Source: a virus
Lineage: Duplodnaviria > Heunggongvirae > Uroviricota > Caudoviricetes
Strand: one strand, 5' to 3'
IMG/VR virus record: IMGVR_UViG_2675903559_000004
Location: 1-5,400 of that record
DNA length: 5,400 nucleotides
The notes beneath the pieces were generated by a model. It did no database searches. It was not told the DNA's origin and saw only the letters and a list, made by a program, of their open reading frames with translations. Below, one piece after another: positions 1-5,400 of the stretch. The position numbers and the translations under genes are program-made. Numbering within the stretch: the stretch's first letter is position 1; each line of letters opens with the position of its first letter.

Positions 1-612
1 GGGGATTTACAACGATTTGGCCGCCGCATCGACCTTCGTGTGAAAACGGGGGCTGAAGCCATCCGGGCACTGGCCACACAGCTCCCGGCGTTTCGTCAGA
101 AACTGAGCGACGGCTGGTATCAGGTACGGATTTCCGGGCGGGACGTCAGCACGTCCGGATTGACGGCGCAGTTACATGAGGTTCTGCCTGACGGCGCTGT
201 GATTCATATTGTTCCCAGAGTCGCCGGGGCCAAGTCAGGGGGCGTATTCCAGATTGTCCTGGGAGCTGCCGCCATTGCCGGATCATTCTTTACTGCCGGA
301 GCCACCCTTGCAGCATGGGGGGCAGCCATTGGGGCCGGTGGTATGACCGGCATCCTGTTTTCTCTCGGTGCCAGTATGGTGCTCGGTGGTGTGGCGCAGA
401 TGCTGGCACCGAAAGCCAGAACTCCCCGTACACAGACAACGGATAACGGCAAACAGAACACCTATTTCTCCTCACTGGATAACATGGTTGCTCAGGGCAA
501 TGTTTTGCCTGTTCTGTACGGTGAAATGCGTGTGGGGTCACGGGTGGTTTCTCAGGAGATCAGCACGGCAGACGAAGGGGACGGTGGTCAGGTTGTGGTG
601 ATTGGTCGCTGA
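1..612 (+). CDS. I: Tail assembly protein I (lambda gpI-like), 5'-partial; frame is open from base 1, true start lies upstream of the window
   Basis: Frame +1 is open from nt 1 to TGA at 610..612. Translation (GDLQRFGRRIDLRVKTGAEAIRALATQLPAFRQKLSDGWYQVRISGRDV...GAAAIAGSFFTAGATLAAWGAAIGAGGMTGILFSLGASMVLGG...VLPVLYGEMRVGSRVVSQEISTADEGDGGQVVVIGR) matches my recollection of lambda gpI, including its Gly/Ala-rich hydrophobic segment. It sits immediately upstream of J, as in lambda. The ORF track begins at M40 only because the window truncates the gene. Confidence 0.85.
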   Translation, partial: GDLQRFGRRIDLRVKTGAEAIRALATQLPAFRQKLSDGWYQVRISGRDVSTSGLTAQLHEVLPDGAVIHIVPRVAGAKSGGVFQIVLGAAAIAGSFFTAGATLAAWGAAIGAGGMTGILFSLGASMVLGGVAQMLAPKARTPRTQTTDNGKQNTYFSSLDNMVAQGNVLPVLYGEMRVGSRVVSQEISTADEGDGGQVVVIGR

Positions 613-1580
613 TGCAAAATGTTTTATGTGAAACCGCCTGCGGGCGGTTTTGTCGTTTATGGAGCGTGAGGAATGGGTAAAGGCAGCAGTAAGGGGCATA
701 CCCCGCGCGAAGCGAAAGATAACCTGAAATCCACGCAGTTACTGAGTGTGATTGATGCCATCAGCGAAGGGCCGGTTGAAGGTCCGGTGGATGGATTAAA
801 AAGCGTGCTGCTGAACAGTACGCCGGTGCTGGACAGTGAGGGGAATACCAACATCTCCGGTGTCACGGTGGTGTTCCGGGCAGGTGAGCAGGAGCAGACA
901 CCGCCGGAAGGTTTTGAATCCTCCGGCTCCGAGACTGTGCTGGGTACGGAAGTGAAATATGACACGCCGATCACCCGCACCATCACGTCGGCAAACATCG
1001 ACCGTCTGCGCTTTACCTTCGGTGTGCAGGCACTGGTGGAAACCACCTCAAAGGGGGACAGGAATCCGTCGGAAGTCCGCCTGCTGGTTCAGATACAGCG
1101 TAACGGTGGCTGGGTGACGGAAAAAGACATCACCATTAAGGGCAAAACCACCTCGCAGTATCTGGCCTCGGTGGTGGTGGATAACCTGCCGCCGCGCCCG
1201 TTTAATATCCGGATGCGCAGGATGACGCCAGACAGCACCACAGACCAGCTGCAGAACAAAACGCTCTGGTCGTCATACACCGAAATCATCGATGTGAAAC
1301 AGTGCTACCCGAACACGGCACTGGTCGGCGTGCAGGTGGACTCGGAGCAGTTCGGCAGTCAGCAGGTGAGCCGTAATTATCATCTTCGCGGGCGCATTCT
1401 GCAGGTGCCGTCGAACTATAACCCGCAGACGCGGCAATACAGCGGTATCTGGGACGGAACGTTTAAGCCGGCATACAGCGACAACATGGCCTGGTGTCTG
1501 TGGGATATGCTGACCCACCCGCGCTACGGCATGGGGAAACGTCTTGGTGCGGCGGATGTGGATAAATGGGCGCTGTATGA
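584..1580. repeat. Tandem direct repeat, copy A (997 bp): I 3' end + I-J spacer + J 5' ~908 bp
   Basis: Hand alignment at a constant offset of 997 nt: 584..1151 is identical to 1581..2148, and 1152..1579 matches 2149..2576 with 17 substitutions. Base 1580 (a) matches neither the I-derived (g583) nor the J-derived (t2577) parental base. Confidence 0.9.
631..660 (+). promoter_or_regulatory. Intergenic stem-loop in the I-J spacer (stem aaaccgcc / ggcggttt, loop tgcg) followed by a T-rich tract ttgtcgtttat
   Basis: Perfect 8-bp inverted repeat at 631..638 / 643..650 with a 4-nt loop, read directly from the sequence. The T-tract is interrupted, so it is a weak intrinsic terminator at best; it could instead be an RNA processing or stability element between two co-transcribed late genes. 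Confidence 0.35.
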
Positions 1581-1677
1581 GTGGTCAGGTTGTGGTGATT
1601 GGTCGCTGATGCAAAATGTTTTATGTGAAACCGCCTGCGGGCGGTTTTGTCGTTTATGGAGCGTGAGGAATGGGTAA
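673..1677 (+). pseudogene. Truncated duplicate of the J 5' end (J'): first 302 codons of J fused to 32 out-of-frame codons read from the repeated I 3' end and spacer
   Basis: ATG at 673 has the same upstream context (ggagcgtgaggaATGGGTAAAGG) as the real J start at 1670. The protein is identical to the J N-terminus apart from D169G and S228N, up to …ADVDKWALY, then becomes [32 protein letters not shown] and stops at TAA 1675..1677. Confidence 0.75.
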
Positions 1678-2577
1678 AGGCAGCAGTAAGGGGCATACCC
1701 CGCGCGAAGCGAAAGATAACCTGAAATCCACGCAGTTACTGAGTGTGATTGATGCCATCAGCGAAGGGCCGGTTGAAGGTCCGGTGGATGGATTAAAAAG
1801 CGTGCTGCTGAACAGTACGCCGGTGCTGGACAGTGAGGGGAATACCAACATCTCCGGTGTCACGGTGGTGTTCCGGGCAGGTGAGCAGGAGCAGACACCG
1901 CCGGAAGGTTTTGAATCCTCCGGCTCCGAGACTGTGCTGGGTACGGAAGTGAAATATGACACGCCGATCACCCGCACCATCACGTCGGCAAACATCGACC
2001 GTCTGCGCTTTACCTTCGGTGTGCAGGCACTGGTGGAAACCACCTCAAAGGGGGACAGGAATCCGTCGGAAGTCCGCCTGCTGGTTCAGATACAGCGTAA
2101 CGGTGGCTGGGTGACGGAAAAAGACATCACCATTAAGGGCAAAACCACTTCGCAGTATCTGGCCTCGGTGGTGGTGGGTAACCTGCCGCCGCGCCCGTTT
2201 AATATCCGGATGCGCAGGATGACACCGGACAGCACCACAGACCAGCTGCAGAACAAAACGCTCTGGTCGTCGTACACCGAAATCATCGATGTGAAACAGT
2301 GCTACCCGAACACGGCGCTGGTCGGCGTGCAGGTGGATTCAGAGCAGTTCGGTAACCAGCAGGTGAGTCGCAATTATCATCTTCGCGGGCGCATTCTGCA
2401 GGTGCCGTCGAACTATAACCCGCAGACGCGGCAATACAGCGGTATCTGGGACGGAACGTTTAAGCCGGCATACAGCGACAACATGGCCTGGTGTCTGTGG
2501 GACATGCTCACTCATCCGCGCTACGGCATGGGGAAACGTCTTGGTGCGGCGGATGTGGATAAATGGGCGCTGTATGT
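1581..2577. repeat. Tandem direct repeat, copy B (997 bp), lying inside the intact I-spacer-J context
   Basis: Same alignment as copy A. Copy B continues in frame into the rest of J (…[13 protein letters not shown]…), whereas copy A is followed by the repeated I 3' end. Confidence 0.9.
1628..1657 (+). promoter_or_regulatory. Second copy of the I-J spacer stem-loop, duplicated with the repeat
   Basis: Identical to 631..660 at offset +997 (aaaccgcctgcgggcggtttt gtcgtttat). Confidence 0.35.
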
Positions 2578-5149
2578 CATCGGCCAGTACTGCGACCAGT
2601 CAGTGACGGACGGATTTGGCGGCACGGAGCCGCGCATCACCTGTAACTCTTACCTGACCACACAGCGTAAGGCGTGGGATGTTCTCAGTGATTTCTGCTC
2701 GGCGATGCGCTGTATGCCGGTATGGAACGGACAGATGCTGACGTTCGTGCAGGACCGACCGTCGGATAAGGTGTGGACCTATAACCGCAGTAATGTGGTG
2801 ATGCCGGATGATGGCGCGCCGTTCCGCTACAGCTTCAGCGCCCTGAAGGACCGCCATAATGCCGTTGAGGTGAACTGGATTGACCCGGATAACGGCTGGG
2901 AGACGGCGACAGAGCTTGTGGAGGATACGCAGGCCATTGCCCGTTACGGTCGTAATGTCACGAAGATGGATGCCTTTGGTTGTACCAGTCGGGGGCAGGC
3001 ACACCGCGCCGGGCTGTGGCTGATTAAAACGGAACTGCTGGAAACGCAGACCGTGGACTTCAGCGTGGGCGCAGAAGGGCTTCGCCATGTACCGGGTGAT
3101 GTCATTGAAATCTGCGATGATGATTATGCCGGTATCAGCACCGGTGGTCGCGTACTGGCGGTGAACAGCCAGACCCGGACGCTGACGCTCGACCGTGAAA
3201 TCACGCTGCTATCCTCCGGTACCACGCTGATAAGCCTGGTTGACGGAAGTGGCAATCCGGTCAGCGTGGAGGTCCAGTCCGTCACCGACGGCGTGAAGGT
3301 GAAAGTGAGCCGGGTTCCTGACGGCGTTGCAGAATACAGCGTGTGGGGGCTGAAGCTGCCGACGCTGCACCAGCGATTGTTCCGCTGCGTGAGTATCCGT
3401 GAGAACGACGACGGCACGTATGCCATCACCGCCGTGCAGCATGTACCGGAAAAAGAGGCCATCGTGGATAACGGGGCACACTTTGACGGTGACCGGCGCG
3501 GCACGGTGAATGGTGTCACGCCGCCAGCGGTGCAGCATCTGACCGCCGAAGTCACCGCAGACAGCGGGGAATATCAGGTGCTGGCGCGATGGGACACGCC
3601 GAAGGTGGTGAAGGGTGTGAGCTTCCTGCTTCGCCTGACCGTGGCAGCGGACGACGGCAGTGAGCGGCTGGTCAGCACAGCCAGGACGACGGAAACCACA
3701 TACCGCTTCAGGCAGCTGGCGCTGGGGAATTACAGTCTGACAGTCCGGGCGGTAAATGCCCGGGGGCAGCAGGGCGATCCGGCGTCGGTATCGTTCCGGA
3801 TTGCGGCACCGGCAGCGCCTGTCACTATTGAACTGATACCGGGGTATTTTCAGATAACGGCGGTCCCGAAACTGGCTGTATATGACCCGACGGTGCAGTT
3901 TGAGTTCTGGTTTTCGGAAAAGCGGATTGCGGATATCAGGCAGGTTGAAACCAGCGCGCGTTATCTTGGTACGGCACTGTACTGGATAGCCGCCAGTATC
4001 AATATCAAACCGGGCCATGATTATTATTTTTACGTTCGCAGTGTGAACACCGTTGGCAAATCGGCATTTGTGGAGGCCATCGGTCGGGCGAGCGATGATG
4101 CAGAAGGTTATCTGAATTTTTATAAAGGGTTGATCAATAAAACGCATCTCGGCAAGGAGTTGTGGACGCAGATTGATAACGGTCAGCTTGCGCCGGACCT
4201 GACTGAAATCAGGACGTCCATTACGAATGTCAGCAATGAAATCACGCAAACCGTCAATAAAAAACTGGAAAATCAGAGTGCTGCAATCCAGCAGATACAG
4301 AAAGTTCAGGTTGATACAAATAATAACCTGAACAGCATGTGGGCTGTGAAGCTGCAGCAGATGCAGGACGGACGCCTTTATATTGCGGGTATCGGTGCCG
4401 GTATTGAGAATACGCCAGCAGGAATGCAGAGTCAGGTGCTGCTGGCGGCAGACAGGATTGCGATGATTAATCCTGCGAATGGCAACACAAAGCCGATGTT
4501 TGTTGGTCAGGGCGATCAGATATTCATGAACGACGTGTTCCTGAAATGCCTGACGGCTCCGACCATTACCAGCGGCGGTAATCCTCCGGCATTTTCCCTG
4601 ACACCTGGCGGACGGCTGACGGCGAAAAATGCCGATATCAGCGGTAACGTGAACGCGAACTCCGGGACGCTCAACAACGTCACGATTAATAAGAACTGTC
4701 GGGTTCTGGGAAAATTGTCCGCGAACCAGATTGAAGGCGATCTCGTTAAAACAGTGGGCAAACCTTTCCCACGGGACTCCCGGGCACCGGAGAGGTGGCC
4801 ATCAGGGACCATTACCGTCAGGGTTTATGACGATCAGCCGTTTGATCGGCAAATTGTTATTCCCGCGGTGGCGTTTCGCGGTGCTAAACATGAGCGGAAG
4901 AATAACAATATTTATTCGTCATGCCGCCTGATAGTGAAGAAAAACGGTGCTGAAATTTATAACCGAACGACCCTGGATAATACGCTGATATATACGGGTG
5001 TTATTGATATGCCTGCCGGTCACGGTCACATGACGCTGGAGTTTTCTGTATCGGCATGGCTGGTAAATGGCTGGTATCCCACAGCAAGTATCAGCGATTT
5101 GCTGGTTGTGGTGATGAAGAAAGCCACTGCAGGCATCACGATTAGCTGA
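1670..5149 (+). CDS. J: Host specificity protein J (lambda gpJ-like tail tip / central tail fibre), 1159 aa
   Basis: Single 3480-nt ORF. N-terminus [54 protein letters not shown] matches my recollection of lambda J. Length is close to lambda J (about 1130 aa). A central stretch around nt 3530..3830 (…[32 protein letters not shown]…) looks like a fibronectin-III-type beta-sandwich. A GGAG Shine-Dalgarno at 1658..1661 lies 8 nt before the ATG. Position fits the order I, J, lom. Confidence 0.93.
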
Positions 5150-5168
5150 ATTTTATAACCCAGATACG

Positions 5169-5192
5169 GGCACCAGAAATGGTGCCTTTTTT
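5169..5192 (+). terminator. Rho-independent terminator downstream of J
   Basis: Perfect hairpin ggcacc (5169..5174) / ggtgcc (5181..5186) with loop agaaat, immediately followed by TTTTTT (5187..5192); begins 20 nt after the J stop codon. Confidence 0.7.
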
Positions 5193-5216
5193 ATTGCAGA
5201 AAAGCGAGAGGTAATT

Positions 5217-5400
5217 ATGCGTAAAGTTTGTGCAGCCATTTTGTCCACAGCCATCTGTCTGGCCGTATCCGGTGCGCCTGCATGGGCGTCTGAACATCAG
5301 TCCACGCTGAGCGCCGGGTATCTTCAGACCCATACTGATATGCCAGGCAGCGATGACCTGAAGGGCATTAACGTGAAATACCGTTATGAGTTTACGGACA
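5217..5400 (+). CDS. lom: Lom-like outer membrane protein precursor (Ail/Lom/OmpX family), 3'-partial; runs off the window end
   Basis: ATG at 5217 preceded by GAGAGG (5206..5211). Translation MRKVCAAILSTAICLAVSGAPAWA/SEHQSTLSAGYLQTHTDMPGSDDLKGINVKYRYEFTD has a typical Sec signal peptide (AxA cleavage motif) and the LKGINVKYRYE motif I recall from lambda Lom. It lies directly after J, as lom does in lambda. It is absent from the ORF track only because no stop codon falls inside the window. Confidence 0.85.
   Translation, partial: MRKVCAAILSTAICLAVSGAPAWASEHQSTLSAGYLQTHTDMPGSDDLKGINVKYRYEFTD

Follow-up and report, generated by a model that had tools for sequence, protein, structure and literature searches.

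An apparent tandem duplication in the host-specificity gene J of a Shigella sonnei contig brings together two lambdoid alleles, one of them a probable recombinant

How does a lambdoid host-specificity gene come to stand partly twice, head to tail, in copies that are identical over long blocks and differ elsewhere almost only at silent sites? The question is raised by the window analysed here, a stretch of 5400 bp corresponding to the whole of contig CXBG01000225.1 in a draft assembly of Shigella sonnei (GCA_001250655.1). It carries lambdoid tail genes, namely I, a truncated J', a full J and the start of lom, and lambda-like phages match most of it at 92-94% identity. Our reading, to which we give a probability of roughly three in four (0.75), is drawn from sequence comparison. 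The copies would be two J alleles from two lambdoid tail modules in one S. sonnei isolate, the resident one having been overwritten in tracts by recombination, and the tandem layout probably does not reflect a duplication in place. The features of the window are as follows:

40..612, + strand: gene I (tail assembly, 190 aa), PF06805, common E. coli 'A/C-type' allele
584..1579, + strand: repeat copy A, running from the I 3' end through the I-J spacer to J nt 907
673..1677, + strand: J' ORF (334 aa), J residues 1-302 plus 32 read out of frame
1580, + strand: junction base A, matching neither flank (an intact J would have T, and 96 of 97 I alleles have G)
1581..2576, + strand: repeat copy B, the stretch equivalent to copy A, hybrid sequence
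1670..5149, + strand: full-length J (host-specificity/tail-tip, 1159 aa), PF24801, PF13550, PF24421, PF24489, PF09327, PF12421
5217..5400, + strand: start of lom (Ail/Lom outer-membrane protein), PF06316, cut by the contig end

I, J and lom are all of ordinary lambda type, and nothing in the window falls outside known kinds. The surroundings of J follow the K-I-J-lom synteny, with I (PF06805) upstream and lom (PF06316) downstream in the same order as in annotated E. coli relatives; phage lambda shares both the order I-J-lom and all the gpJ Pfam domains. In the precomputed Pfam assignments, the gpJ domain set is complete in the 1159-aa product (FNIII-A_GpJ, Phage-tail_3, Ig_J, Phage_Tail_Tip, Ig_GpJ_C). 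NCBI holds this protein as an S. sonnei host specificity protein (CSO50645.1), and the exact protein is found on this contig only; the exact I protein is present in 1123 blocks of a public collection. Compared with lambda gpJ, the window differs in having an extra truncated ORF, J' (334 aa), ahead of J, and in a J allele of the EIEC/Shigella lineage, relatives of which carry ipaH genes downstream. Like its relatives among the protein matches, J' comprises solely the N-terminal PF24801 region. Its out-of-frame tail is encoded by the duplicated I 3' end and the spacer, and its stop codon overlaps the start of the full J.

Two inverted repeats lie between these genes. In the I-J spacer, at 631-650 and, duplicated along with the repeat, at 1628-1647, the arms AAACCGCC and GGCGGTTT form a perfect 8-bp hairpin around TGCG, with a T-rich run behind it. 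A consensus-based promoter and terminator scan of 560-1720 made no call, including at this hairpin. Between the J stop and lom, a GC-rich inverted repeat with a T-run at 5166-5191 (GGGCACCAGAAATGGTGCC TTTTTT) looks like a putative intrinsic terminator.

An ungapped comparison at offset 997 delimits a direct repeat of 996 nt, in which 584-1579 corresponds to 1581-2576 and which opens in copy A with the last 29 nt of I (584-612). The preliminary description had listed every site at which the copies differ (copy-B positions being those of copy A plus 997), and our comparison reproduced the list exactly: 1152, 1181, 1227, 1230, 1275, 1320, 1341, 1344, 1356, 1358, 1359, 1371, 1374, 1506, 1512, 1515 and 1518, or 17 sites in total. 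The copies are identical over 584-1151 (568 nt), 1375-1505 (131 nt) and 1519-1579 (61 nt), and the differences gather in two tracts:

1152-1374 in copy A, + strand: variable tract 1, 13 sites, copy-B partner 2149-2371
1506-1518 in copy A, + strand: variable tract 2, 4 sites, copy-B partner 2503-2515

By codon analysis, 15 of the 17 changes fall at third codon positions, and 16 are transitions. The earlier count of 15 silent and two protein-changing differences stands, while the residue numbers given with it (D169G and S228N) need correction to D170G and S229N, the affected codons being 170 (GAT/GGT, D/G) and 229 (AGT/AAC, S/N). Between the copies, pN/pS is 0.04; chance would make at least 15 of 17 changes synonymous with a probability of 3.5e-8 and would leave the first 568 of 996 nt free of differences with one of 5.8e-7. 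Against 86 other alleles, the 5' block (584-1151) shows 2-58 differences, mostly about 15-28, and against the resident S. sonnei allele it shows 20; it is therefore not a stretch that is merely conserved among alleles. The earlier picture of an identical 5' block followed by clustered changes thus holds for the identity of 584-1151 but is too simple as a division into two blocks: the mosaic inside the repeat has five alternating tracts, and one more donor-type tract lies outside it, at 2940-2989. That the copies of an old duplication drifted apart by random mutation, a possibility which the preliminary description had already discounted, is excluded. The changes are clustered and almost entirely silent, the first 568 nt are unchanged, and all 17 variant states are those of the resident S. 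sonnei allele.

From which allele, then, does each copy come? Over 1-1579, that is I and all of copy A, the window shows 3 mismatches in 1579 nt to a single natural locus (L103), one of them in 1-583 and two in copy A. Copy A is 99.4% identical to E. coli strain 3385, its variable block has its best matches in common E. coli alleles at 99.1% (strains 1943, 3385 and AH01), and 1400-1540 is matched exactly in four complete E. coli genomes. Within the last 100 nt of 1-583, the window departs from the resident S. sonnei I (L090) at 492, 505, 510, 531, 543 and 582. Copy A is a single natural allele throughout, colinear with the upstream I. The suggestion that copy A was the mosaic copy was consequently not borne out, 1-1579 being colinear with L103 and copy B being the hybrid.

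One codon of J deserved closer attention. Codon 264 (1462-1464 and 2459-2461) reads TTT (Phe) and looks like a hybrid of TTA, the codon of three E. coli references, and resident-type CTT. A consensus chimera was considered for the haplotype at 1462-1480 and rejected, given the exact matches of 1400-1540 and the presence of the haplotype in L103 as well; TTT264 and D270 mark a less common sub-allele that both copies share. Two of the related records call for a comment of their own. In the nominally complete genome of E. coli strain 3385, M, K, I and J are annotated as frameshifted fragments (1638-8000 of the fetched locus), which suggests uncorrected long-read indel errors rather than biology. 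Among the closest copy-A-type alleles is also that of pAH01-1, a 46.9-kb circular record that is filed as a 'plasmid', contains a complete lambdoid tail module and probably represents a phage genome.

The variable block of copy B finds its best matches in a rare lineage of nine EIEC-like genomes (98.6-98.9%), all others reaching at most 96.6%, and among 86 alleles only EIEC-like loci have the copy-B state at all 17 sites. Downstream of the repeat, 2577-5400 is 97-98% identical to nine EIEC-like genomes and at most 93.4% identical to every other. The remainder of J and lom thus belong to the same rare lineage as the variable block of copy B, which supports the presence of two alleles. The preliminary description had proposed that the variable sub-blocks come from different, selectively constrained J alleles, and separate searches of the two agree with it: their best matches differ, being E. 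coli at 99.1% for one and EIEC/Shigella at 98.9% for the other. Each block is closer to a different existing allele than to the other copy, as expected of a recombination mosaic.

The hybrid nature of copy B emerges on comparison with the resident reference L090, a clean S. sonnei contig from another batch. Copy A and L090 differ at 42 sites of the repeat. At 25 of these copy B agrees with copy A and at 17 with the resident allele, and these 17 are exactly the differences between the two copies. Along the repeat, the state of copy B changes in runs of 20, 13, 3, 4 and 2 sites, and all 42 informative sites have either the copy-A or the L090 state, with zero private mutations in the tracts. Past the repeat, 2577-2800 is identical to L090; beyond 2800, the references for the resident allele are imperfect. 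Typical S. sonnei J proteins agree with the window's J at residues 170 and 229 and differ from it at residues 36, 49, 58, 61, 114, 264 and 270; being resident-type also in the 5' block and at 264/270, they support the view of copy B as a hybrid. In complete E. coli genomes, 2397-2537 of copy B has no exact match, the best reaching 97.9%. Copy B is, on these alignments, the mosaic copy, made of a resident S. sonnei backbone and of tracts identical to copy A. The donor tracts in the resident J are the following:

1714-2057 (J nt 45-388 at least): donor tract in the resident J
2459-2477 (J nt 790-808): donor tract in the resident J
2551-2560 (J nt 882-891): donor tract in the resident J
2940-2989 (J nt 1271-1320), + strand: donor (C-type) tract outside the repeat, with 4 of 4 fixed diagnostic sites

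After the last of these, 29 resident-type sites extend up to 4135. Since this tract lies beyond the repeat, the donor J would have been longer than copy A, and we infer that the same genome holds a second, full-length J of donor type. Modelling the entire J with L103 and the S. sonnei contig L089 as parents took about 20 switches, some only 1-17 nt apart, and was judged an artefact of imperfect proxies; L089 is unsuited as a parental reference because it is itself a stacked contig. In two of the closest relatives of the resident J (L003 and L006), ipaH type III effector genes follow at 8470-8824 of each locus, some 3 kb past J and on the far side of lom and the tail-fibre genes. The resident-type prophage would be an EIEC/Shigella effector carrier, as the ipaH genes of these two relatives indicate.

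The allele assignments and the tract structure can be read directly from these alignments: 1-1579 (I and J nt 1-907) belongs to a common E. coli-type allele, the donor, and copy B, the remaining J and lom to the J allele resident in S. sonnei. The events behind the mosaic would have run as follows. Another lambdoid prophage in the same host would have donated conversion tracts to this resident J, through homologous recombination or gene conversion between prophage genes about 4-5% diverged and with patchy heteroduplex repair. The copies would be identical where donor sequence was copied in and different where resident sequence survived, and nearly all differences would be silent because both parents were functional J genes under purifying selection. 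Some allele switches are only about 25-36 nt apart (1480/1506 and 1518/1554, that is 2477/2503 and 2515/2551 in copy B); for a single recombination event, switches spaced by about 25-35 nt are unusually patchy.

Divergence-tolerant homologous recombination between lambdoid phages and prophage remnants is experimentally established (De Paepe et al. 2014, PMC3945230). As in that study of lambdoid mosaicism, sequences diverged by about 4-5% would here have exchanged tracts in a conserved tail gene, the borders of the exchanges fall in short stretches of identity, and one partner is the resident prophage of the host (PMC3945230). Unlike the single blocks described there, the window contains several short alternating tracts in about 1.3 kb. 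The earlier mosaics were moreover obtained by experiment, whereas the present one is known from its sequence, and either a Red-beta-like recombinase or RecA is conceivable.

Could the repeat nevertheless have arisen as a tandem duplication within one prophage, the 3' part of copy A being replaced later from another J allele? The identity of the copies over 568, 131 and 61 nt would fit such a history, as would the match of the copy A variable block to alleles other than those of copy B. We consider it highly improbable. From the upstream I through the 5' block to its 3' end, copy A follows one natural allele, with 3 mismatches to L103 in 1579 nt, and the replacements at 1152-1374 and 1506-1518 would both have had to restore that allele exactly. 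Such a history also needs the hybrid copy B to be ancestral, yet the hybrid stretch 2397-2537 has no exact match in the E. coli genomes, and typical S. sonnei J proteins are resident-type throughout. Nor can a single parental sequence be recognised, as would be expected of a genuine duplication, copy A representing the donor allele and copy B a resident backbone.

The preliminary description had left a choice between recombination of two lambdoid prophages and the merging of two prophages by the assembler, and both options still stand. That the mosaic itself is an artefact, in which a pure donor J and a pure resident J had their shared pieces collapsed or re-used, seems improbable to us. A draft short-read assembly of multi-copy prophage genes is a setting in which this could occur, the sister contigs described below are clearly chimeric, and one of them has an N at the equivalent of 1152. 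Copy B, however, links donor G2477 to resident C2503 over 26 nt and resident T2515 to donor G2551 over 36 nt, and reads from pure parents would lack k-mers of at least 30 nt spanning 2477/2503. Velvet k values are usually above 30. GapFiller works with 30-mers (PMC3446322). The resident 5' block, with 20 differences in 344 nt, would moreover have assembled as a path of its own. De Bruijn bubble-popping was also considered as a source of the block pattern and rejected, the tracts being only 25-36 nt apart.

If, as we favour, the mosaic in copy B was made by recombination, the head-to-tail layout remains to be explained, and here the evidence centres on the junction. The window contains no N, and no overlap of at least 10 nt is found at 1580, where a lone A separates the copies. 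This A is unlikely to be a natural base of an I allele, being found in one of 97 alleles (L092), while G is the base in S. sonnei. The repeat begins at 584, just 2 nt beyond 582, the last site at which the resident I and the donor I differ, and from its right end, 1579, it is 29 nt to the nearest downstream site that distinguishes donor and resident (1609). If the I partner is of the resident type (..GGGGATG|GTGG..), ATG is common to both partners where they meet.

The junction is unique in the sequences searched. It was marked by the k-mer GGGCGCTGTATGAGTGGTCAGGTTGTGG, and searches for the junction 28-mer found it in none of 5426 complete E. coli genomes, nor in GTDB species representatives, IMG/VR or JGI metagenomes, collections without Shigella chromosomes. 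A 661-nt BLAST query over the junction was covered at 100% in thousands of genomes, which proved to be two permuted pieces joined; an 80-nt query found none. The tail of J' occurs in no protein of a large protein collection, and P0043, which has 92% query coverage, is without the junction tail. An exact look-up of the J' protein gave no match either, a weak negative since the contig's own gene list holds J'. The independent support that a genuine duplication would call for was thus found in neither the genome, the metagenome nor the protein collections.

Other contigs of S. sonnei put this junction into perspective. CXDK01000078.1 (L089) and CXEU01000085.1 (L097), which were reached by following up J-fusion proteins, consist of partial tail modules stacked in series, and from their neighbouring accession numbers they appear to belong to the same submission batch as the window. 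A single N stands at four of their stack junctions (6621 and 8847 in L089, 2695 and 6660 in L097), L089 has an additional N at the equivalent of window 1152, and its N-free join of J to L falls on a 10-nt shared string, CTGGTCGGCG. The stack-join sites noted in all are 6621, 8847, 10480 and 10649-10658 in L089, 2695 and 6660 in L097, and ten in the unrelated contig L088, whose stacked-repeat junctions carry ten single Ns. Stacks of this kind, in public draft contigs of S. sonnei and E. coli, give rise to deposited chimeras in which the N-terminus of J is fused to tail protein L, to the tape measure protein or to I, and the J-fusion proteins examined (3 of 3) lie on stacked contigs with single-N joins. 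Apart from these, many database entries consist of a J N-terminus followed by Ail/Lom or by a ParB-like nuclease domain (P0021, P0066, P0078, P0115; P0038, P0053-P0061). Some of them recur in NCBI as well as Logan assemblies, and either genuine deletions within J or additional artefacts could account for these fusions.

GapFiller closes a gap where two extensions overlap by at least 10 nt (Boetzer and Pirovano 2012, PMC3446322), and the 10-nt overlap in L089, which corresponds to this closing criterion, counts in favour of false joins. A pipeline of Velvet, SSPACE and GapFiller was applied to 299 S. sonnei genomes with a mean of 405 contigs, and its authors state that these greedy tools can produce false joins (Page et al. 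2016, PMC5320598). That pipeline would fit the window in species, draft state and neighbouring accessions (CXBG, CXDK, CXEU); the window's own accession is absent from the supplement of PMC5320598.

On balance, we lean slightly towards an assembly origin of the head-to-tail layout: in building the draft from Illumina reads, the scaffolder would have wrongly joined two contigs representing different alleles. The 5.4-kb window makes up a whole contig of the draft and, as in known cases of SSPACE/GapFiller false joins, this contig is short and made of multi-copy prophage genes alone. As in CXDK01000078.1 and CXEU01000085.1, a piece of a downstream gene is followed by a restart further upstream in the module. 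Stacked tail modules, single Ns and one join on a 10-nt overlap occur in the CXDK/CXEU assemblies, no other collection searched contains the junction, and 584 adjoins the diagnostic site 582, where a contig boundary would be expected. Under such a join, the copy-A haplotype (T1506, G1512, C1515, C1518) would continue as ...CTGTATGTCATCGG at a separate locus. Unlike the joins of those contigs, however, the junction of the window is a lone A with neither an N nor a 10-nt overlap, and hence does not bear the signature of the sister assemblies; we can name no assembler step that writes such an A at 1580. The sister assemblies were found through J-fusion proteins and are a biased sample, and with the accession absent from the supplement of PMC5320598, the pipeline used for this assembly is only presumed.

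The junction may alternatively be real, a possibility that we regard as worth keeping but somewhat doubtful. Two co-oriented lambdoid prophages, or an infecting phage and a resident prophage, would have been fused by an illegitimate join in which donor J nt 907 met a point 29 nt before the end of the resident I, by deletion or unequal exchange. The product would mimic a 997-bp tandem duplication, and the conversion tracts would date from the time when both phages were present. In keeping with such a fusion, the contig has no N and a single non-templated base at the join, both partners carry ATG at the breakpoint if I is of the resident type, and the donor on the left and the resident on the right show the colinearity that it predicts. 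The tract at 2940-2989, which needs a former full-length donor J, fits two complete prophages before the deletion, and 1579 lies 29 nt short of the next donor/resident difference. Against it stand the absence of the junction from every genome, virus, metagenome and protein collection searched and the confinement of the exact J protein to this contig. The tail module is also demonstrably mis-stacked in sister assemblies, and the left boundary of the repeat adjoins an allele-diagnostic site, as a contig end would.

Taken further, a real junction would yield a history that we consider rather unlikely, in which a new lambdoid prophage and the resident one exchanged J tracts and an illegitimate deletion then left a predicted-expressed J' ahead of the hybrid J. 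If true, the window would be a snapshot of prophage-prophage conversion and decay in one recent clone. The J' product, with 302 N-terminal residues of the tail tip, might then interfere with the tail-tip assembly of superinfecting lambdoid phages.

Mosaic J alleles, prophage-prophage recombination and false joins in draft assemblies are all already well known. The locus calls for caution, as what appears to be a diverging tandem duplication in a phage host-range gene proves to consist of two prophage alleles in a short draft contig. The well-supported part of our reading is a resident S. sonnei J that carries tracts identical to an E. coli-type allele. Without adding a new principle, it would offer a clean small case of lambdoid prophage recombination in a young clone.
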